From NCBI GenBank assembly GCA_963696385.1, contig CAVOKF010000003.1, positions 416,001 through 480,000 on the forward strand: DNA of 64,000 nucleotides. The letters run 5' to 3'. The notes beneath the pieces are model-generated. The model was not told where the DNA came from. It ran no database searches and saw only the letters and a program-made list of their open reading frames with translations. Within the stretch, counting starts at the first letter, position 1, and the number at the start of each line of letters is the position of its first letter. Source of the stretch: an uncultured delta proteobacterium. GTDB lineage: Bacteria > Myxococcota_A > Polyangia > Polyangiales > Polyangiaceae. Below are positions 48,623 through 64,000 of the stretch, piece by piece. The position numbers and the translations under genes are program-made.

Positions 48623-48954
48623 GACCGCTCCTCATACCGCCCGGAAAGCGGCAGAAGCAACCGCTTCTGGGGTTTCGAGGGTTGGCGCTCGCCGCCCTCT
48701 GGATCGGGTTCCTGGGCTTGCTCGACCTGCTGCCCCCAGCGCGAGGTGGGCACGCGGTCGGCGGGCGCCAAATCCTGTTCAGCGGCTCTGCGAGGATCGC
48801 CGGCAGCAGGTCGCAGCCGAATGATCACCGGGGGTGCGCCGAGGGGTGATCGGCGGTACAGGGGGTGCCCGCAACGCGTGCCGCGCCTCTTGGTAGGCGA
48901 GCGAAGAGCACACGCGCAAAGTATACGTCGCAGTTATCGAGACTACAGATTTTT

Positions 48955-48992
48955 GCCCCCGTAGCTCAGAGGATAGAGCAGCGGTTTCCTAA
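48955..48992 (+). pseudogene. 5' half of tRNA-Arg(CCT), truncated after the anticodon loop (probable attL)
   Basis: GCCCCCG TA GCTC-AGAGGATA-GAGC A GCGGT TTCCTAA; the expected ACCGC strand and T arm do not follow. Confidence 0.88.
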
Positions 48993-49845: not shown

Positions 49846-50301
49846 ATGAGTACTCCGCCATCGTTCGTAATCTATTGCGACTCGCGCGAGCAAACTCCGC
49901 CTCCGTTTCCTGATGGTGTCGTACTCGAGCGGGTCACTATGTCCGAGGCGGATTACACGTCGCCGAAGCTACAGGGGATCGGAGTCGTCGAACGCAAATC
50001 CACATCCGACTTCGCGAGCTCGATCACGCACTCGAGAGAGAGATTCGACGACGAGGTCCGGCGACTGAAGGCGTATCGCTGGAAGTGCATCATCGTCGAG
50101 GGGAGCCTCCACGACGTCTATCGATGCACGACCGCGCACCCGCATTCGATCATCGGCTCTATTGCATCGTTCTATGCGCGGGCTGATATCCCGACGATTT
50201 TCGCGGGCAATGCCGCAGGTGCGGGCCGACTCATCGCTGGCATTCTCCGTCGCTGGGAGGAGCGCATATTGGCAGAGCGCGCCGAGAGGGGGGCCGCATG
50301 A
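49846..50301 (+). CDS. ERCC4-domain structure-specific nuclease
   Basis: DSREQ, ADY, VERKSTSDFASSI, ERFDDEVRRL, IIVEG. Confidence 0.88.
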   Translation: MSTPPSFVIYCDSREQTPPPFPDGVVLERVTMSEADYTSPKLQGIGVVERKSTSDFASSITHSRERFDDEVRRLKAYRWKCIIVEGSLHDVYRCTTAHPHSIIGSIASFYARADIPTIFAGNAAGAGRLIAGILRRWEERILAERAERGAA

Positions 50302-50510
50302 CTCGAATGCTTGGCTCGCCTGAAAATCAAGCGCGCGTATACGCCAGACGCGCCGCTGGCAAACCGCTCGACGATAACGATCTCGCGGTGATCGGCGAGC
50401 TGCCGGACGACCCTTCAGACGGTTGCATATCAGCACTCGAGCTCGGCGACCAGACTCCCGAGGACATCGCCGAAATCGAACGCCTCGTCAAAGAAAAGAT
50501 GGGCGCGTAA
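50298..50510 (+). CDS. Small acidic hypothetical protein
   Basis: Start/stop overlaps on both sides. Confidence 0.6.
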   Translation: MTRMLGSPENQARVYARRAAGKPLDDNDLAVIGELPDDPSDGCISALELGDQTPEDIAEIERLVKEKMGA

Positions 50511-52078
50511 TGGCCAGCATAACGCCGATCGAGAGCAGGCGCATATTGGAATTGGTCGACGGATTTCCGAAGACGGATTCTGGCAATGCCGAAAGGCTTA
50601 TCGCGCTCAGCGGTCGAGAGCTCCGATACGTGCGTACGTGGTCGAAGTGGATCGCCTGGAATGGCAAACATTGGACGCTGGACGAAGGCGCTCCGCACCG
50701 CGCAGCGAAGGCCATGGCCCGCGCGCTCATGAAGCAGGCGCAGCGAATCGATGATCCAGACGCGAGAAGCGCGGCCGTCCGATATTCACTCAAGTGCGAG
50801 GGCAAGGCGTCGATTGAGGCAATGGTGTCCTTGGCTCGTTACGAGCTGGCGGTTGCCATTGGCCACGAAGAGCTCGACGCCGATCCGTGGCTGCTCTGCG
50901 TTCGCAACGGCACAATCGACCTCAAAACGGGTGAGCTTCGGCCGCATCGGCGTGAGGACCTCATCACCAAGATTGCGCCCATTGACTACGACCCGGCCGC
51001 GACATGCAATCGGTTCGAGCGATTCGTATCCGAGATCATGGCGGGCGACGCTGCGCTCGTCACATTCATTCACCGGTTTCTCGGCTACTGCATGACCGGC
51101 GACGTTCGCGAGCACATTCTCGCCTTCTGGCACGGCGAGGGCGGCAACGGCAAAAGCATGCTCGCCGATCTCGTTCTCTTCGTTATGGGCGATTACGCCT
51201 GCAAAGCAGCGCCGGACCTTCTTTTCAAGGGTGAACACTCGGAGCGTCACCCGACCGAGCTTTGCGACTTGTACGGGCGGCGACTCGTCGTTTGCAACGA
51301 GACGACGAGCGGGCGCTCGTGGGACGAGGCGACGGTGAAGGACATCACCGGCGGCGACCGCATTCGAGCGCGGCGCATGCGCGAGGATTTTCGGGAGTTC
51401 AGTCCGAGCCATAAGCTGCTCGTTTTCGGGAACCATCGACCGCGTATCCGATGCGTAGACAAGGCGATGGAGCGACGGCTCCGACTCGTGCCGTTCGCCG
51501 TCAGCTTCATCGGACGTGAGGACAAGGACCTCAAGCAAGCGCTCAAGGCCGAGGGCCCTGGCGTGCTGGCATGGCTCGTCCGTGGATGCCTTCAGTGGCA
51601 GGCCGAGGGCCTTCCCGACGTCGCCGCGGTCCGCGACGCGACGCAAGCCTATCTCCGCGACGAAGACACACTCGGTCAATTTTTCGACGGCGAGTGCGTC
51701 TTCGACCCGACGGCCAAGATCAGCCGCAAGGAGCTCCGAGACCGCTATGTGGCGTGGTGCGACGACCGCGACGAGCGTCCTGTCAGTCCAAAAACGATCG
51801 CGGATGCCATCACAAGGCGCGCCGTCGTCCCGCGCAAGGTTTGGACAGCGAAGGGGCCTCGTGACGGATGGGCGGGAATTCGGCTCGCAAATGAGGCCGA
51901 ACGAACGACCGCTAGCGACATAGTGACGCCTAACGAGGAAATCCCGGTTCAACGCGATCAGAACGTTTCTCGTGAGATAACCCGGGAATTGCCGACTATG
52001 CCCACTAGCTCGCTAGACGGCGACCAAGAGGACTTCGGCGACTACCTCGAGCGCGAAGGAATTGGGGGTGAGGAGTGA
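50510..52078 (+). CDS. P4-family D5_N + SF3 helicase with wHTH (no primase domain)
   Basis: TDSGNAERL, WNGKHW, NGTIDLKTG, GEGGNGKS, KDITGGD, GNHRP, RRLRLVPF. Confidence 0.92.
   Translation: MASITPIESRRILELVDGFPKTDSGNAERLIALSGRELRYVRTWSKWIAWNGKHWTLDEGAPHRAAKAMARALMKQAQRIDDPDARSAAVRYSLKCEGKASIEAMVSLARYELAVAIGHEELDADPWLLCVRNGTIDLKTGELRPHRREDLITKIAPIDYDPAATCNRFERFVSEIMAGDAALVTFIHRFLGYCMTGDVREHILAFWHGEGGNGKSMLADLVLFVMGDYACKAAPDLLFKGEHSERHPTELCDLYGRRLVVCNETTSGRSWDEATVKDITGGDRIRARRMREDFREFSPSHKLLVFGNHRPRIRCVDKAMERRLRLVPFAVSFIGREDKDLKQALKAEGPGVLAWLVRGCLQWQAEGLPDVAAVRDATQAYLRDEDTLGQFFDGECVFDPTAKISRKELRDRYVAWCDDRDERPVSPKTIADAITRRAVVPRKVWTAKGPRDGWAGIRLANEAERTTASDIVTPNEEIPVQRDQNVSREITRELPTMPTSSLDGDQEDFGDYLEREGIGGEE
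51911..52009. repeat. Imperfect inverted repeat in the helicase 3' end, candidate replication origin
   Basis: GCTAG-CGA-CATAGT ... ACTATG-CCCA-CTAGC, with inner ATCCCGGTT / AACCCGGGAAT. Confidence 0.5.
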
Positions 52079-53181: not shown

Positions 53182-53668
53182 CCTCTTGACGGACGAGCTG
53201 ACGCAAGCGCACCTCGCGCTGCTTTTGCACCAGCTTTGGGATGAGTACTTCGAGCCCAGGCCGCGGCCTTTGCTGTTGCCGGTGATCGATGAGGGACTTG
53301 TGGAGTGCGCCAACATCCAGCGCAAGGGCACGATCTTCGTGATCACGTTCGACCGGACGACGCTGGATCTCGGTGTGGGCCGGCGGTGGCTGGTCGACGT
53401 TGCTCTGCATGAGCTCACGCATGTGCCGAGCTATCCCGAGCGCGCCTCGCACGGGCCGGGCTTTTACGCCGAGTGCTGCCGTCTTTCGCCGCTCATAGGC
53501 CTCGAGTTTTTGCCGTGCGAGGACACGGTCCACGAGTGGCCCCACAACATGCGACCCGATGGCTTTTACGAGGGGACTTATTTCGACGCGGACAGGATCG
53601 GATCGGCGTGGCTTGTCGACGTTCGCGATGCGTTCGCGTCGGTGGCCGCGCTCGAGGTGGACCCATGA
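53171..53668 (+). CDS. SprT-like Zn metalloprotease
   Basis: ALHELTH...HGPGFYAECCRL. Confidence 0.7.
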   Translation: MITDLLTDELTQAHLALLLHQLWDEYFEPRPRPLLLPVIDEGLVECANIQRKGTIFVITFDRTTLDLGVGRRWLVDVALHELTHVPSYPERASHGPGFYAECCRLSPLIGLEFLPCEDTVHEWPHNMRPDGFYEGTYFDADRIGSAWLVDVRDAFASVAALEVDP

Positions 53669-53757
53669 CTGCGCTCGATCATGGCAGCAATCATCCCGAC
53701 CGTGAACACGGCCAGACCCATGATGGCAAGGCCAACGATGTAGGTGTACTCGCCCAT
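53578..53757 (-). CDS. Small single-TM protein (59 aa)
   Basis: AGGAG RBS; MGEYTYIVGLAIMGLAVFTVGMIAAMIERS...; manual translation. Confidence 0.5.
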   Translation of the reverse strand: MGEYTYIVGLAIMGLAVFTVGMIAAMIERSHGSTSSAATDANASRTSTSHADPILSASK

Positions 53758-53759
53758 GT

Positions 53760-53933
53760 TCAGCTCCTGCTCCTGGTTCGCTCAATGATGGCGCCGAAAC
53801 CGGCAAAAAACAACCCCAAACCAAGAACGACCACGGTCCACCTCCACGACGGTAAGCCGGCCGCGATTGTCTTTTCTAGCACGCCCAGGGCCGCGACGAG
53901 CACACCAGCCTCCCGCAGAAAGTCGCCCGACAT
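53760..53933 (-). CDS. Small two-TM membrane protein (start uncertain)
   Basis: FLREAGVLVAALGVLE...WTVVVLGLGLFFAGFGAIIER. Confidence 0.55.
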   Translation of the reverse strand: MSGDFLREAGVLVAALGVLEKTIAAGLPSWRWTVVVLGLGLFFAGFGAIIERTRSRS

Positions 53934-53993
53934 CTCTGCCAAGCCTTTAGGCGCCCCCATCGGGGCCATTCCTAGCACATCCGTGGGGACTCC

Positions 53994-54566
53994 ATGGCAA
54001 TAAGGAGTGGACACGGCAACGGCGCCGGCGTGCCCCGGATCGAGGTCCTGCCTCCCGACGAGCTGCCGGATCCGGCTCCGATACCGGACGAGAGCGGTCC
54101 GATTGTGCGCCGCTCGAACGGCACGTTCGCCGATGGGGAGTCCGCCAGGCGGGCCGGTCGCAAAGGTGGCCAGCGCACGCAGCTATTCAGCCGCATCCTT
54201 CGTTCGTTGGGTTTGGCCGAGCTCTCGGCTGACCACGCGTTCTACGCCTACGAGGTGGCCGGCAAAGACTTTGCCGATGCCTACATTTCCCGCCTCACGA
54301 CCATGTTTGGCGAGTGCGGCGAGGGACCCGCCAGCATCGTGAAGACCGCCGGGATTCAGCTCGCATCGAGTCGTTACCTCTACGACCAGGGCAAGCTGAC
54401 GGGCGACGCCGAGCTCCTGGGCCAAGCGTCCAAGATGGGCAACGACCATCGCCAGAACATGCTTGCGAGTTACGAGCTCGCCGCACGGGAAGCTCAGGCG
54501 CGCGAGGCCTCCGTTCCAGACGGCGTCGATGCCCACTGGTGGTCGGACAAGAAGGGCAAGCGATGA
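53994..54566 (+). CDS. Putative terminase small subunit
   Basis: Immediately upstream of and overlapping TerL; RRSNGTF...ARRAGRKGG motif then helical region; largely positional. Confidence 0.6.
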   Translation: MAIRSGHGNGAGVPRIEVLPPDELPDPAPIPDESGPIVRRSNGTFADGESARRAGRKGGQRTQLFSRILRSLGLAELSADHAFYAYEVAGKDFADAYISRLTTMFGECGEGPASIVKTAGIQLASSRYLYDQGKLTGDAELLGQASKMGNDHRQNMLASYELAAREAQAREASVPDGVDAHWWSDKKGKR

Positions 54567-56323
54567 AGTTCACCGAATTCACCGACGACATCGGCCTGAG
54601 CCTCACGCCGGCACAACGTGTACTCTGCAAGGTTTCGTTTGATGGGACCGACCCTTGTGCGCTTGAGGGCGCGGAGCGGGAGCTTGCGCGAGTTCTGTTC
54701 GGCGAAGTCGATACGGTGCCCGCGTTGGCCCGGCGCACGATCGTGCTGACCCTTGGCCGAGGAAGCGGAAAGACGACCATCGCAGCGGCGTACGGTCTCT
54801 ATCGAATGGTGACCGCGGACCTCTCGAGGTGCGGGCCCGGTGACATTCCGCACATGATCGCGGTCGCCCCGACGACGCGAACGGCAAAGCTCGTCGTTGG
54901 CATGGCCCAGGAGCTCACGCAGTGGTCGAAGGCATTGCGTCGGCGCGTCGAATCGGAGACAAAAGAAGGATTCATTCTTCGACGTCCCGACGGCAAGCGC
55001 GTTGCTTTCTCGGCGTTCGCGGCGAGCCGTGGCGGCGCATCCGCCCGCGGGCTCTCGGTCCTCTCGTTCGTGCTCGACGAGAGTGAATTTTTTCAGAGCG
55101 ATGCGGAGTTCGTGGTCACGGACCGTGACGTCTACGGCGCGATCGTCCCCCGTCTGATGGCGGCCGGCGCGGGCGTACTGATCTCGACGCCGTGGCCCGT
55201 GCCCACCATGACGGCCGAACTGCGCGAGAAGAATTTCGGCGCCCCCTCGACGGCTCTGTGCGCAGTGGGTCCGACGCTCGTCATGCGCCCCGGCGACGAA
55301 ACTATCGAGTCGCTGGTCGCCGCCGAGCGAGAGCGCGACCCAGACAACGCGGCGCGCGAGTTCGATTGCGACGCGTCCGCGACCAGCGGCTCGAGCACTC
55401 TCTTTACCGCCGAGATGATCCGCGCATGCGTCGACATGAACCTGGCGCAGCCGTCGCCACGCGTCGGAAGCTATCACCCGAGTTTCGGTTGCGACGTCGC
55501 GTTCGTGCGCGACTCGAGCACCCTCGTCGGGTCGGTCGACAAGGAAGGCGTCGTCGAGGTGCAAACGATTCTTGAAAAGAGGCCAGAGAAAGGCCAGCCA
55601 CTTCGCCCAAAAGAGGTCGTCGACGACTTCGCGAAAGTGATTACTGATTATGGCGCGGTGAGTGTTTGGGGTGATATTCACTATAAGGAATCGGTCCGCG
55701 AACATCTCGAACCGTATCAGATCGAGTTTTGCGACGTGCCCGCTGGCGCAAACGGCAAACAGGAGACGTACCTGCACGCCCGCAAGATGCTAAGCGAGGG
55801 CCGCGTCCGCCTCCCGAACAATCCGCGCTTTCTTGCTCAGTTGAGAAGCATCGTCAGCAAGCCGATGTCCGGCGGAGGTTTGCAGATCAGCGCACCGCGC
55901 CGCGCTGGACTCGCACACGGCGACATCGTCTCGGCGTTCGTGGCGTCGCTCTGGGCTGTCAAACAGGGAGAGCAGCCGGACTGGTTGCGAGCGATGGTCG
56001 CCCTGGATCAGCGGAACGGCGTGTTGTTCGACGGCGGCAATTCTAAGATGTGCAATGAGCGATACGTGAATGCGTTGGCCGCGATTATCGGGTGGCGGAA
56101 GCGCCATGGCAATCTGCGAAAGGATACGCACACGCTCGACGTGGGCAACGACGGTACATATACATTGGTACACGCCAATTATCTGAACGGTGTAGCGCGG
56201 TGGCGTTCCAAGGACCGTTTCGGCAACGTGGTCTTCGATCCGCATTGCGAGCCGGGCTTCAAACATCAGATGGCTTGGATCTGGACAGAACTTTACTCGA
56301 ATCGTGGAGGCGAAGCGCCATGA
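54563..56323 (+). CDS. Terminase large subunit with ~110-aa C-terminal extension
   Basis: LTPAQ; Walker A GRGSGKT; Walker B FVLDESEF; ISTP; RNase-H GCDVAFVRDSS; HGDIVSA. Confidence 0.88.
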   Translation: MKFTEFTDDIGLSLTPAQRVLCKVSFDGTDPCALEGAERELARVLFGEVDTVPALARRTIVLTLGRGSGKTTIAAAYGLYRMVTADLSRCGPGDIPHMIAVAPTTRTAKLVVGMAQELTQWSKALRRRVESETKEGFILRRPDGKRVAFSAFAASRGGASARGLSVLSFVLDESEFFQSDAEFVVTDRDVYGAIVPRLMAAGAGVLISTPWPVPTMTAELREKNFGAPSTALCAVGPTLVMRPGDETIESLVAAERERDPDNAAREFDCDASATSGSSTLFTAEMIRACVDMNLAQPSPRVGSYHPSFGCDVAFVRDSSTLVGSVDKEGVVEVQTILEKRPEKGQPLRPKEVVDDFAKVITDYGAVSVWGDIHYKESVREHLEPYQIEFCDVPAGANGKQETYLHARKMLSEGRVRLPNNPRFLAQLRSIVSKPMSGGGLQISAPRRAGLAHGDIVSAFVASLWAVKQGEQPDWLRAMVALDQRNGVLFDGGNSKMCNERYVNALAAIIGWRKRHGNLRKDTHTLDVGNDGTYTLVHANYLNGVARWRSKDRFGNVVFDPHCEPGFKHQMAWIWTELYSNRGGEAP

Positions 56324-59339: not shown

Positions 59340-60605
59340 ATGTCCGGCCAACCCCCAATCGGGACCTGGGCGACGACGACCGACTACCCTCCGGGTTCGA
59401 GCCCGTGGAGCGGTAATCCCACGAAGATCCAGCCAACCCAAACGTATTGGATTCCGGCGACCGGCGTGAGCGCCCCCGAACACAATTACATCATCAACCA
59501 GCTCTACGCGGAACTTGCCGCCGTCGAAGCCGCGGGCGGATCGGCGCTCGTTGCGCAGAACTGGCAATCTGTCATCGCCGCGGGGCCGGCGAACGCGAAC
59601 GCCCTCGCGTGGAATCCAATATTGAGCAGCGGCGGCGCGTTCATCACCGTCGAAAAGAACTCTGGGCCGCTCTACCAGTTCGTATACAACAGCGGCGCGG
59701 ACCTCGTTTGGACGACGCTTGGCTCGACATTCAACGTGAACTCGAGCTCGCCGAACGTTACGGCACTCGCGTGCGGTCCCGCGCAAGGCGTAACATGGGC
59801 GAGTTTTATCAATTCGAGCAACGTCGGATATCTATGGTCGTGCACCGTCGGCGGTTCTACGGACGCGCTGCTAGGTACAGGTAATGTATCCAACATGTAT
59901 CTAGCCGCTGCCGCAACGTCCGGCGTCGACTGGGGCGTTCTCGCTATCGCATCCGGCACGTCCGGCGATTCAGCGCTGTACTTCCTGACCGCCACCGGCG
60001 CGACGGGCTTGTCGACCGGCCTCACCGAAGCGCAATGGGCCGTTGCGTCGAACGGGTCGCTCGTCGTCGCAGTTGGCACCGACCGGATCGTGTATTCCAT
60101 ATCGTCCTCCAGCGGAACGTCCGGCACCGTCTCAACAGCGAATATCGCCTCCGTGCTCGGTACCGATCTGCCAATCTCCATGGCGTACGGCACGAGTACC
60201 ACGTTCCCCTCCGGCGCGTTCATCCTTTGCTGCTCCACAACGACAAGCGGACAGCGTCGCTATTACGCGAGTCAAACCGGTACCGGCGCGACTTGGGTTT
60301 CGCTCGGCGTCGCGACGACCTCGGCGGCGGCTGAAGTCTCGCAAATCGTCGCGTGCGGAAGCCTTTGGCTCGGACTCGTATCGCTGGCCGGCGGGGTCGC
60401 TGGAGTGATCATGGCCCCGAACGGCATCGACTTCGGTGGATCGGCCACGGGCAACTGGCAATCGACCCAGACTCGCGTGGTCCCGAGCGGATCCGCGGAA
60501 CCGATGATCGCCGCTGGGCCCACCCAGGCCGCGATTGCGATGGCAGATGGCGGCCCAACGTTCCGGTTCAGCCAGATCAGCGGGCCCGGCACGGCGTTGA
60601 CGTGA
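59340..60605 (+). CDS. Tail-fibre/receptor-binding-like virion protein
   Basis: N-terminal WA...PWSGNPTK...WIP...APEHNYIINQL, then an S/T/G/A-rich beta region; no signal peptide. Confidence 0.55.
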   Translation: MSGQPPIGTWATTTDYPPGSSPWSGNPTKIQPTQTYWIPATGVSAPEHNYIINQLYAELAAVEAAGGSALVAQNWQSVIAAGPANANALAWNPILSSGGAFITVEKNSGPLYQFVYNSGADLVWTTLGSTFNVNSSSPNVTALACGPAQGVTWASFINSSNVGYLWSCTVGGSTDALLGTGNVSNMYLAAAATSGVDWGVLAIASGTSGDSALYFLTATGATGLSTGLTEAQWAVASNGSLVVAVGTDRIVYSISSSSGTSGTVSTANIASVLGTDLPISMAYGTSTTFPSGAFILCCSTTTSGQRRYYASQTGTGATWVSLGVATTSAAAEVSQIVACGSLWLGLVSLAGGVAGVIMAPNGIDFGGSATGNWQSTQTRVVPSGSAEPMIAAGPTQAAIAMADGGPTFRFSQISGPGTALT

Positions 60606-60637
60606 CCATGGCGTCGCACCACCAGCAGGAGTACGCA

Positions 60638-61087
60638 ATGCGCAGCAGCAGGTTTTTTCCTCTCCTCATCCTCAGCGCTCTCGTCATCACGGCGGCCGTC
60701 GCGCGAATCGCAAGCGCGCAAGTCGTCCTACTCAACAATTTCCAGGGCCCGGAGGTCGTCGGACCCTTCACCACTGTTGGCTCCGGCAACTACCAGGTTG
60801 CCCAATTCACCGTCCTCCCGAATCACAATGTATACGTGAGTATCGGGTGCGACGCCATCGACACCGTAAACACCGCGGCCAATTCCTGGCGCCGAGACGT
60901 CTACGTGTTCGATAATAGCGGCGGCATTGCGCCAGCCGTCTTCCAGACACCCGAAAACTACACGACGAGCATCGCCATATCTAGCAATTACGGAACCCCG
61001 GGGGGCAATGCGCTAACGCTCGATTTTGAGACGACGGCATCGGACGCGCTTCGCGTCATATGTGTACTGTACTCGTTCTCGAATTGA
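60638..61087 (+). CDS. Secreted beta-rich protein
   Basis: AGGAG RBS; signal peptide ending ASA-Q; two Cys. Confidence 0.65.
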   Translation: MRSSRFFPLLILSALVITAAVARIASAQVVLLNNFQGPEVVGPFTTVGSGNYQVAQFTVLPNHNVYVSIGCDAIDTVNTAANSWRRDVYVFDNSGGIAPAVFQTPENYTTSIAISSNYGTPGGNALTLDFETTASDALRVICVLYSFSN

Positions 61088-61088
61088 C

Positions 61089-61274
61089 ATGGCCTCGCAC
61101 CGTCCAATTGGCCTTTCGCGTTGGGAGCTTGAGCACGGCGCTCAGCCCGAGGCTTGCCCGATTCCTGAGAGGGTCGAGGGATTTTGGCTCGGACCTGCGG
61201 GAGCGTGGCGCGATAGGGCGATAGCGGCGGAAGCGAAGTTGCTAGAGTTACTTCGCAGTCTTCGCAGCGCGTAA
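61089..61274 (+). CDS. Small hypothetical protein
   Basis: Starts 1 nt after the previous stop; WRDRAIAAEAKL helix. Confidence 0.5.
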   Translation: MASHRPIGLSRWELEHGAQPEACPIPERVEGFWLGPAGAWRDRAIAAEAKLLELLRSLRSA

Positions 61275-61307
61275 ACAGGCCACTGCGAAAAATCGTATAT
61301 CGGTCAC

Positions 61308-61336
61308 TTGACGGGATTGTCGATAGGCAGTATATC
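61308..61336 (+). promoter_or_regulatory. Sigma70-type promoter
   Basis: TTGACG-N17-TATATC in an AT-rich patch. Confidence 0.6.
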
Positions 61337-61341
61337 TATTC

Positions 61342-61495
61342 ACGTCGACGGGACGCTAAGCCGAGGACGACGCAAGGCCTGCCAAAGTGGCCACGGAGCG
61401 AGAGCAGTCACGGCTCAGAAAGTGACGGTCCAGCTGGGCGACAGCCGAGCCAGAAACCCCGAGCGGCGAAAGCTCCCGGGGTTTCGCCCATTTTC
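61342..61495 (+). ncRNA. Candidate structured ncRNA (~150 nt)
   Basis: Between a promoter and a terminator-like hairpin; contiguous stems, GNRA loop, possible pseudoknot; no RBS-led ORF. Confidence 0.55.
61453..61494 (+). terminator. Intrinsic terminator-like hairpin (possibly bidirectional)
   Basis: GAAACCCCG...CGGGGTTTC 9-bp stem followed by GCCCATTTT; a convergent gene ends at 61495. Confidence 0.6.
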
Positions 61496-61968
61496 TACTG
61501 TTCTCCTGGCCCCCTTTTCGGAGCGCTGAGCGCCTGATTCTTGGCCGCGACAATAAGGCCGGCGAGCTCGGCCAGGCCGTCATTGCCTGCTTGGCCTGAG
61601 AATTTGACTCCACTCCACTCGATGTTCGGCGTCATATTTTTTGTGAACCCCTCGCGATGAGGGCGCCCACCGACCACGATAGTTCCGTCGCTTCCGTGAC
61701 GCGCGAAAGATACCTCGACCTGATACCAGCGCGTGCTGTCCGCGTCGCGCGCCGCGTCTTGGTTGAGCGTTACCGATAGCACGATACCGGCGGATGGCTG
61801 CTTGCTGATCTCGTATGTATGAGACCCGGCGACGGCTTCTTCGAGAGCCGTGATTAGGTCTTTGATGCCATTTACTGGCCATCGTACGTCCAGATTTAGT
61901 TCGCCTTGGACGTTCACACTTTCAGTTCCGTCTAGGATTTTTACTGCGCGCTCGATGTCGTACGCCAC
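61495..61968 (-). CDS. Hypothetical cargo protein (157 aa)
   Basis: GGAGGGG RBS; more AT-rich ORF. Confidence 0.7.
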   Translation of the reverse strand: MAYDIERAVKILDGTESVNVQGELNLDVRWPVNGIKDLITALEEAVAGSHTYEISKQPSAGIVLSVTLNQDAARDADSTRWYQVEVSFARHGSDGTIVVGGRPHREGFTKNMTPNIEWSGVKFSGQAGNDGLAELAGLIVAAKNQALSAPKRGPGEQ

Positions 61969-61983
61969 CTGCCCCTCCGTTCG

Positions 61984-62259
61984 CTAAGTCGCTTCCCCAG
62001 CGTGTTGCTTCCTGCACGGCCCCATGGAGAACGATAGGCATTTGTCGCAATACTGCGGCCCGTTCGTTGGCTGCCGAGATCCGGTGCTCTTGGCTTCTGC
62101 GCGCTCCGCAGACTCCGCCTCTTGCACGAGTGCACCGACCACGGCATCGGCGATCTTGATCGCCCTCCGCGCGATTCCCGTTGCGTCGCCGTTCGGGTCT
62201 AACGCGGATCCGGACACGGCGCGGAGAATCAATTCTGTACGAAGTTGATGTTCGTTCAT
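61984..62259 (-). CDS. Hypothetical protein with C-terminal CxxC...CxxxH
   Basis: YCDKCLSFSMGPCRKQH; strong RBS. Confidence 0.65.
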   Translation of the reverse strand: MNEHQLRTELILRAVSGSALDPNGDATGIARRAIKIADAVVGALVQEAESAERAEAKSTGSRQPTNGPQYCDKCLSFSMGPCRKQHAGEAT

Positions 62260-62287
62260 GCTTCCCCTCCGTTCTGACCCCGTATCT

Positions 62288-62470
62288 TTACGGTTTTGGG
62301 TTCATATCGTCCCATTTTTTGATGAGTGGTTTGACTGTTTTCGTAGCTCTGCGTCGGAGCCAGTCGGCAACTTCAACGTCATCGATGCCGGCGACCCGCG
62401 CGAGCGCACCCAGTCTCTCCACGATCCATTGCAGGTCGGCCTTCGTAAGCTTCACTTCGTCATCCACCAT
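62288..62470 (-). CDS. Small hypothetical protein (60 aa)
   Basis: MVDDEVKLTKADLQWIVERL...; strong RBS. Confidence 0.6.
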   Translation of the reverse strand: MVDDEVKLTKADLQWIVERLGALARVAGIDDVEVADWLRRRATKTVKPLIKKWDDMNPKP

Positions 62471-62492
62471 GGCTGGCCCCTCCGTTCGCGCC

Positions 62493-62568
62493 ATGGTCTC
62501 ACCGCCTGACGGGTGGTCAACGAAAAGTTTGCGAGTGGCTTGCGCTCACGCGCTCACGCGCTTATGCT
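62493..62568. promoter_or_regulatory. Divergent sigma70-type promoters with tandem operator-like repeat
   Basis: Plus strand: TTGCGC(62540)-N17-TATGCT(62563) with GCGCTCAC x2; minus strand: TTGACC(62520)-N16-GACCAT with TG extension. Confidence 0.55.
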
Positions 62569-62574
62569 CTCATC

Positions 62575-62859
62575 GTGGCTGCAAAGAAGAAGGAGATCAA
62601 AGTGCAAATCACCGAACGCGCGCTGGTTCAACGCATCAACCGCAAGCTCGCGCCGAAGGCCGAAGACCCCCGTTCCCATAAACGATTGTGCAAGTCGAAG
62701 GGCTTTTACGACGGGCCCTTGAAGCACTTCAACGAGCTCGGGGAATTCTACGTCCTCGACCTAGGCACGAACACGGTCGAGCGCACCGACGTCGACATCG
62801 TGGAGCTCGCGAAGGAGCTCAACGCACTCGCCCCGTGGGAAGCGCTCGCAAGCAACTGA
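62575..62859 (+). CDS. Phage-type hypothetical protein (probably leaderless)
   Basis: ITERALVQRINRKL...LGEFYVLDL...VDIVELAKEL; GTG lies 6 nt after the -10. Confidence 0.7.
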   Translation: MAAKKKEIKVQITERALVQRINRKLAPKAEDPRSHKRLCKSKGFYDGPLKHFNELGEFYVLDLGTNTVERTDVDIVELAKELNALAPWEALASN

Positions 62860-62931
62860 CACGATAGCGCCCCCCGCGCCGCGCTAACGGCCGGGAGGCA
62901 TGGCCCAACCCCGAACGAACCGGAGTCGAAC

Positions 62932-63144
62932 ATGCAACCATTAGCCCATTTTCAAGCAGACGAACCGCCTACGCGCCCGACGGCGCATATCCCCGCATCC
63001 GCCCTCATCGCCTTCCGCCGCATCGGTCGGCTTGCGGAGCTGGCCAGCGAGCGGCTTTCGACCGACCCCGATGCGGACGCGATCCTCGAGGCCATCGGCG
63101 AAATGGAACGCATCCGCGAGATTTGCGCGGAGGTGGGCCGATGA
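62932..63144 (+). CDS. Small hypothetical protein
   Basis: GGAG RBS; overlap with the next gene. Confidence 0.6.
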   Translation: MQPLAHFQADEPPTRPTAHIPASALIAFRRIGRLAELASERLSTDPDADAILEAIGEMERIREICAEVGR

Positions 63145-63742: not shown

Positions 63743-64000
63743 ATGGGACGAGCGCTTTCCGGCACGGTCGAATGGCGAGGCACCCCGCCGCGGTGGTGGG
63801 CCCGCATCACGGTCCGCACCGAAGACGGCGGAACACGCCGAGTTTGGGTCGACCTCGAACGGCCGGACCTACGCGACACGCCCGACGACAAGCGGACGGC
63901 GAAACGGCTGGCCCTCAAGCGCGCCAAGCTCGCCGCACGCAAAACGTACGTCGGGGTCGAGCGGGCCGCGGCGCCCAGGGTCACGCTGGCCGAGCTCGAA
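63743..64000 (+). CDS. Probable tyrosine integrase, N-terminal arm-binding region (truncated)
   Basis: MGRALSGTVEWRGTPPRWWARITVRTEDGGTRRVWVDL...TLAELE, open to the edge; catalytic domain not visible. Confidence 0.7.
   Translation, partial: MGRALSGTVEWRGTPPRWWARITVRTEDGGTRRVWVDLERPDLRDTPDDKRTAKRLALKRAKLAARKTYVGVERAAAPRVTLAELE

Follow-up and report, generated by a model that had tools for sequence, protein, structure and literature searches.

A candidate small RNA with conserved ends and a variable middle beside the cargo genes of two tRNA-integrated elements in a myxobacterial genome

The window, that is, the whole 64,000-nt stretch of DNA analysed here, belongs to contig C3 of a genome of 6.9 Mb, and from position 48953 to its end at 64000 and beyond it is occupied by an integrated phage-like element of ~16.1 kb (C3:464953-481133) at a tRNA-Arg(CCT) gene. 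Two copies of a 40-bp direct repeat, one of which lies within tRNA-Arg(CCT), give the bounds of this element (Table 1); in the window itself, ARAGORN calls no tRNA or tmRNA gene. Between the repeats are found genes for an ERCC4-type nuclease, a D5-type primase-helicase, a terminase large subunit, and an integrase, along with several further proteins without known family that are probably structural. The integrase frame stays open from its start past the beginning of the tRNA-Arg gene (window-equivalent 65096), and the integrase of the sister element described below is 439 aa long. The candidate RNA unit lies between the gene for a 61-aa protein, the last in the rightward structural block, and a convergent 157-aa cargo gene, the stop codon of which abuts the hairpin module at the 3' end of the unit. 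For the cargo and neighbouring proteins, no family was found in Pfam, PHROGs, or NCBIfam, and the Atlas placed them in unnamed clusters only.

Table 1. Features of the tRNA-Arg(CCT) element and of the candidate RNA unit, in window coordinates
Feature	Position	Strand	Remark
Left copy of 40-bp direct repeat	48953..48992	+	5' part of the tRNA-Arg(CCT) gene
ERCC4-type nuclease	49846-50301
D5-type primase-helicase	50423-52078
Terminase large subunit	54314-56323
61-aa protein gene	61089..61274	+	last gene of the rightward structural block
Conserved non-coding spacer	61275..61341	+	promoter-like pair; from sister comparison
Predicted RNA 5' end, ACGTCGACGGG	61342..61352	+	10/11 kept in sister
Variable body	61353..61427	+	75 nt here, 53 nt in sister
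CGTCG/CGACG	61343/61368	+	present
GGCC/GGCC	61376/61389	+	present
GGA/TCC	61395/61429	+	present
GCGAGAGC (GC-GAGA-GC)	61398-61405	+	present
GTCAC/GTGAC	61407/61422	+	present
GCTG/CAGC stem		+	present
Conserved 3' module	61428..61494	+	66/67 identical in sister, plus one inserted base there
Module closing stem, short	61427-61429 with 61486-61488	+
Module small hairpin, GCUgGGC-GACA-GCCgAGC	61433-61450	+
Module long hairpin	61453-61485	+	GAAA loop, then AUUUU
GAAACCCCG/CGGGGTTTC, then ATTTT	61453-61461/61477-61485	+	9-bp hairpin, present
Convergent 157-aa cargo gene	61495..61968	-	family unknown; stop codon 61495-61497 abuts the module
Integrase	start 63719
Right copy of 40-bp repeat	window-equivalent 65094-65133		with whole tRNA-Arg(CCT); just beyond the window end

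The same genome carries a second element of this kind, 16.3 kb in length (C3:64601-80900), which is inserted at tRNA-Gly(CCC) and delimited by a repeat of 44 bp. Each of the two sister elements encodes a nuclease, a D5 primase-helicase, a large terminase, unknown structural genes, and an integrase. In gene set and size, the two ~16-kb elements recall capsid-forming satellites or very small phages. The sister is syntenic around the unit, with genes for a fibre-like protein, a secreted protein, and the 61-aa protein, followed by the non-coding unit and a convergent gene, which encodes a lipoprotein-like protein of 193 aa unrelated to the 157-aa product and has its stop codon within a few bases of the module. 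The hairpin thus takes the same position beside the cargo stop codon in both elements. The 61-aa gene is 75% identical to its sister in amino acids and 73% in nucleotides, and its 50 mismatches are distributed over the three codon positions as 14/5/31, that is, 31 of the 61 third positions differ. Homology between the two elements breaks off precisely at the module's right-hand edge, in the T run, and different cargo lies beyond. When 62575-63144 is compared with the sister, the accessory block between the module and a conserved protein of ~70 aa (62932-63144) proves unrelated; genes of the variable block encode proteins of 157, 91, 68, and 94 aa here, and the 193-aa lipoprotein-like protein and a 74-aa ribbon-helix-helix-like protein there. 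Such unrelated accessory blocks are the pattern expected of co-resident elements carrying different accessory or immunity modules.

When the two copies of the unit are compared, its ends are conserved and its middle is variable. The stretch 61275-61352, comprising the spacer and the predicted 5' end, is 90% identical (69 of 77 aligned positions, one gap), and the module 99%; given that about half of the third codon positions have diverged in the gene next to them, these values suggest, as far as a comparison of two sequences can, that both are under constraint. Between them, the body is 38% identical with 22 gap columns, the random level for a segment that cannot be aligned, and the variable bodies have no match anywhere else in the genome. 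It should be noted that patchy perfect identity is general in this element pair: exact runs of 118, 74, 56, 54, and 53 nt are found elsewhere, some within genes, and the longest exact run of the module, 48 nt, ranks sixth among those shared by the two elements, so that the identity of the module may reflect recent exchange rather than selection. The best-conserved patch between the elements, at 53550-54010 (96% over 521 bp, with the exact runs of 118 and 74 nt), apparently encodes two small membrane proteins on the minus strand just upstream of the terminase region, and its conservation shows either recent exchange or strong constraint.

The conserved spacer contains a promoter-like pair, TTGACG (-35, 61308-61313) and TATATC (-10, 61331-61336). 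It was judged against the sigma-70 pattern, in which hexamers near TTGACA and TATAAT stand 16-18 nt apart and the -10 element has A at position 2 and T at position 6; TTGACG matches the consensus at five of six positions and TATATC at four of six, with 17 nt between them. In the sister, the -35 element is intact, the -10 element differs by one change (TATACC), and the distance is 16 nt. Four substitutions and the sole 1-nt indel sit in the 5' half of the stretch between the two elements, where a promoter tolerates change, a distribution that fits a promoter. A consensus scan of 60500-62500 calls no promoter-like site, because the near-invariant T at position 6 of the -10 element is absent from both copies. 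A transcript initiated here would start at ~61342, a position deduced only from the distance to the -10 element, and in both copies a small hairpin can form at its 5' end by pairing with a GACG that follows shortly downstream.

An earlier, sequence-only reading of this DNA had proposed an elaborately folded RNA between the promoter and the terminal hairpin. All the sequence features that it listed, from the promoter pair through the 9-bp hairpin, are present (Table 1), and the variable body contains every stem of the junction that it described. This core, namely the junction closed by GGA/TCC, the GC-GAGA-GC and GTCAC hairpins, and the pseudoknot, is nevertheless situated in the unalignable, partly deleted segment and folds no better than shuffled sequences. 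The segment 61342-61430 has a z-score of +0.59, with 139 of 200 shuffles as good, and the equivalent segment of the sister scores +1.16; the GTCAC hairpin is missing from the sister copy, as is the GGCTC loop, so the proposed pairing of GGCTC with GAGCC is lost there. Given these values and its absence from the sister, the core is neither conserved nor exceptional. Over the longer stretch 61338-61500, the plus strand folds at -62.7 kcal/mol compared with -56.7 +/- 4.3 kcal/mol for shuffles (z -1.39, 21 of 200 as good), and the minus strand gives a z-score of 0.00.

The only part of the unit that folds above chance is the 3' module (61425-61497, z -2.59, one of 200 shuffles as good), which contains a stable hairpin. 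Its small hairpin and all of its loop bases are identical in the two copies; these are the only true copies compared, and the module is nearly identical in both. The tail reads AUUUU here and AUUU in the sister, a run of three to four U, and short T runs flank the hairpin on both strands. In the consensus scan of 60500-62500, no terminator is called on it, since the T run is short, with fewer than the five T in eight that the scan rule demands. A covariance model of the module, run on 150 related genomes (151 with the window's own), detects similar hairpins at E ≤ 0.1 in 16 of the 150 (17/151 when the window's own is included). The best of these look-alikes scores 36.5 bits, compared with 103-106 bits for the two true copies, and the likeness is concentrated in the long hairpin. 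Those inspected sit at gene ends, one beside a tRNA gene and another with a transposase gene on one side and a convergent gene on the other; they are treated as terminator look-alikes, and no homology to the module is claimed. In an alignment of seven sequences fitted to the module model, five of which are matches chosen by that model, 95.7% of cells pair and nine of 22 module pairs change on both sides; as the sequences were picked by the same model and are maybe unrelated terminators, these figures speak to the recurrence of such hairpins only and show no RNA family. The two most module-like matches, L055 (1313-1592) and L061, come from two other genera of the family (G427 and G309) and share a block of ~280 nt, 83% identical between differing flanks. 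At the edge of this block lies a hairpin ~88% like the long hairpin of the module, the rest of the block being absent from the genome studied here, and in L055 its neighbours are an rve-type transposase gene and a convergent gene; the block may be one end of a mobile element, or else a 3' region that is conserved.

No known RNA family is recognized in this region. Rfam 15 gives no match at the gathering score in the whole 64-kb window, nor any family match at the locus of the sister copy (L002). At E ≤ 10, only Six3os1_3, SNORA43, and GHRLOS were returned in 61100-61700, with 10-14 bits against thresholds of 40-80; matches to these animal lncRNA and snoRNA models are at chance level. The resemblance to the raiA motif suggested earlier, as well as the c-di-GMP-I, C4, and ribozyme candidates named with it, finds no Rfam match at either setting. 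A type I toxin-antitoxin system with a convergent antisense RNA, which would call for a small hydrophobic toxin gene with an mRNA overlapping the RNA, was also considered and rejected: the products of the convergent genes, 157 and 193 aa long, are unrelated, and the genes end before the RNA without overlapping it.

Searches for further copies returned little. By blastn, 61280-61500 yields only fragments of 23-26 nt (E 0.003-0.005) in four of 60 related genomes, the two best of which fall inside coding sequence, and a phage collection contains no match to the RNA region. The hairpin pattern occurs in 25 stretches of genome contigs, none of them with the upstream part of the module; the module and promoter patterns are not found in viral contigs, nor the module pattern in metagenome contigs. 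Alignment of the 61-aa protein finds no locus in genome contigs or in viral contigs, and a degenerate pattern for its C-terminus has no hit in either collection. Among 5.8 billion proteins, the 61-aa protein has a single relative, the 37-aa fragment P0001 on a 16,232-bp JGI contig. P0001 is near-identical to it, with one E-to-D change in 37 aa, and given that the contig is about as long as the 16.1-kb element, it may represent an excised circular or packaged form. A 491-aa protein of the element is found in two of 401 genomes of the order, and a profile built from three sequences of it detects matches in seven of the 31 from the genus, both counts including the genome of the window; for this protein, IMG/VR yields no locus. 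The element family is thus rare, and the 61-aa gene and the RNA are absent from all nine distant-relative loci examined, with one inspected gap in a distant element looking coding. Four sequencing runs are listed as containing the stretch, all of them DNA from soil metagenomes of one study, and from 61212 to 61514 their contigs show no difference from the window.

The explanation that we tentatively place first, while giving it somewhat less than an even chance, is that the element encodes a small RNA, conserved at both ends and free to vary between them, the terminator of which would also serve the convergent cargo gene. Transcription from a sigma-70-type promoter (TTGACG-N17-TATATC) would begin near 61342 and give an untranslated RNA of ~153 nt, or of ~131 nt in the sister (130-155 nt overall), and the 3' end of this RNA would be a Y-shaped hairpin domain with a short U run behind it (61428-61494). 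Given that conserved ends around a free middle are also the layout of OmrA/OmrB, the working parts would be the conserved 5' end, the small conserved hairpin before the terminator, or both, with the RNA acting by base pairing and the middle serving as a spacer. The module hairpin would, in addition, terminate transcription of the convergent cargo gene; should it do so, the unit would insulate the structural genes from the accessory genes. From the stand-alone RNA proposed in the sequence-only reading, the non-coding and conserved unit, the promoter-like 5' part, and the stable 3' hairpin are retained, whereas the elaborate fold is not.

A hairpin abutting a convergent stop codon is, however, explicable without an RNA gene. 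It is possible, if on balance doubtful, that there is no functional RNA and that the 67-nt module is a bidirectional terminator for the structural and the cargo genes, in which case the spacer would be 3' untranslated or regulatory DNA, the middle unconstrained filler, and any short transcript a by-product. Such a terminator would be expected where, as here, the unrelated cargo genes of the two elements both stop only a few bases from the module, and the similar hairpins of related genomes, found in those inspected at gene ends, point the same way, as does a middle that is both unstructured and unconserved. Downstream of the 61-aa gene, moreover, no other stable hairpin precedes the module (spacer z -0.19), so transcripts of the structural genes would end at the module too. 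What termination leaves unaccounted for is the identity of the small hairpin and of the loop bases, which exceeds its needs, and a spacer that is 90% conserved beside coding sequence at 73% and changes in a promoter-like manner.

It is unlikely that the conservation acts at the level of DNA, with the two ends either serving as linkers where related elements swap accessory modules, their likeness maintained through recombination or gene conversion between the co-resident pair, or forming a protein-binding site for replication, packaging, or recombination. The abrupt end of homology at the right edge of the module, with different cargo beyond, would suit an exchange point, and perfect-identity patches occur elsewhere in the pair, also inside genes. 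On the other hand, 67 nt with non-homologous sequence on both sides offer gene conversion a poor substrate, no repeated word of more than 12 nt connects the region with other parts of either element, and the att sites, being located at the tRNA genes, are distant from the module.

Less probable still, and in our view very unlikely, is a specificity RNA in which a constant 3' scaffold, a fixed 67-nt protein-binding part, carries a hypervariable and replaceable body of 50-75 nt that chooses a rival element or host transcript, each sister element thereby having its own target of immunity or interference. This would explain why two sister elements of one cell have identical ends and unrelated bodies: they share a genome, their differences lie precisely in the body and the block of regulator and cargo genes next to it, and the scaffold is fixed. 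Yet complementarity remains at chance level in searches by words and by duplex energies, which likewise give no support to the antitoxin or immunity role suggested earlier. Complementary words between either RNA and either element reach at most 12 nt, as expected by chance, and the variable body paired with the variable block of its own element at -46.2 and -43.9 kcal/mol in the two elements, not beyond the best of ten shuffled bodies. The Rfam C4 model, moreover, finds no match, and the body, 53-75 nt long, is unstructured and differs in length between the copies.

That the region encodes a protein, through the 73-aa ORF at 61308-61529 on the plus strand or the 85-aa ORF at 61356-61613 on the minus strand, both of which are open in the window, is already contradicted and so improbable that it can be set aside. 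The plus-strand frame, which starts at the TTG of the -35 hexamer, reads TTG ACG GAG TGG CGA TAG in the sister and thus stops after five codons; this ORF, the conservation of which at the protein level would have spoken against an RNA, is not conserved. The minus-strand frame extends into cargo sequence that is missing from the sister, and peptides read from a minus-strand ATG at the module edge are unrelated between the copies after codon 6. Neither ORF has a PHROGs or Pfam match, and the 73-aa product is absent from a collection of 15 billion proteins. Since no frame is kept and the 1-nt insertion in the sister module shifts all frames on both strands, the comparison of the two copies shows what is, judged by its reading frames, a non-coding stretch.

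If the RNA is real, it would be among very few regulatory RNAs known from myxobacterial mobile elements, although mobile-element small RNAs are a kind already known, and it would give compact access to a family that is rare and uncharacterised, namely tRNA-integrated elements of 16 kb with a primase-helicase, a terminase, and an integrase. If the module is a terminator only, the finding is an ordinary one. Either way, the elaborate fold and the link to raiA should not be carried forward.

Among known systems, the antisense immunity RNAs of P1/P7 (c4) and P4 (CI), together with guide RNAs, are the comparators for a specificity RNA. Like the c4 and CI RNAs, the candidate would be a small RNA carried by an element that is temperate or satellite-like, and the differences between the two copies would fit heteroimmunity; unlike them, it has no Rfam C4 match, no complementary target found in the same element, and no downstream gene on the same strand. 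Bidirectional intrinsic terminators occur between convergent genes, and the module resembles them in its GC-rich hairpin directly after a convergent stop codon and in the short T runs on both strands. It differs from them in the extra conserved small hairpin and in a base-for-base identity that includes the loops, whereas neighbouring silent sites have diverged.

Small RNAs of prophages are also relevant: AgvB and AsxR are reportedly prophage-encoded anti-sRNAs of E. coli, and svsR is said to be another prophage-encoded small RNA of this species. The Pas sRNAs, according to the source, are prophage-encoded small RNAs of E. coli as well (bioRxiv 10.64898/2026.05.13.724894). These prophage sRNAs have been detected experimentally and in many strains, whereas the unit described here is read as sequence from two copies in one metagenome-assembled genome; in common with them, it is a short non-coding unit in the accessory part of an integrated element and occurs in more than one related element.

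The closest parallel in layout is provided by OmrA and OmrB of Enterobacteria, which the source describes as paralogous units with near-identical 5' and 3' ends, an unrelated centre, and a promoter and hairpin terminator of their own (PMC2588501). The two systems have no sequence relation; the host is a myxobacterium, the units are on a mobile element rather than on the chromosome, and the layout is here one read from sequence. The proportions differ too, the conserved 5' end being only 11 nt and the conserved 3' part far longer (67 nt). What the candidate shares with OmrA/OmrB is the arrangement of paralogues with conserved ends and a divergent centre, with 10 of 11 positions kept in the 5' end, 38% identity in the centre, and 66 of 67 positions kept in the module.
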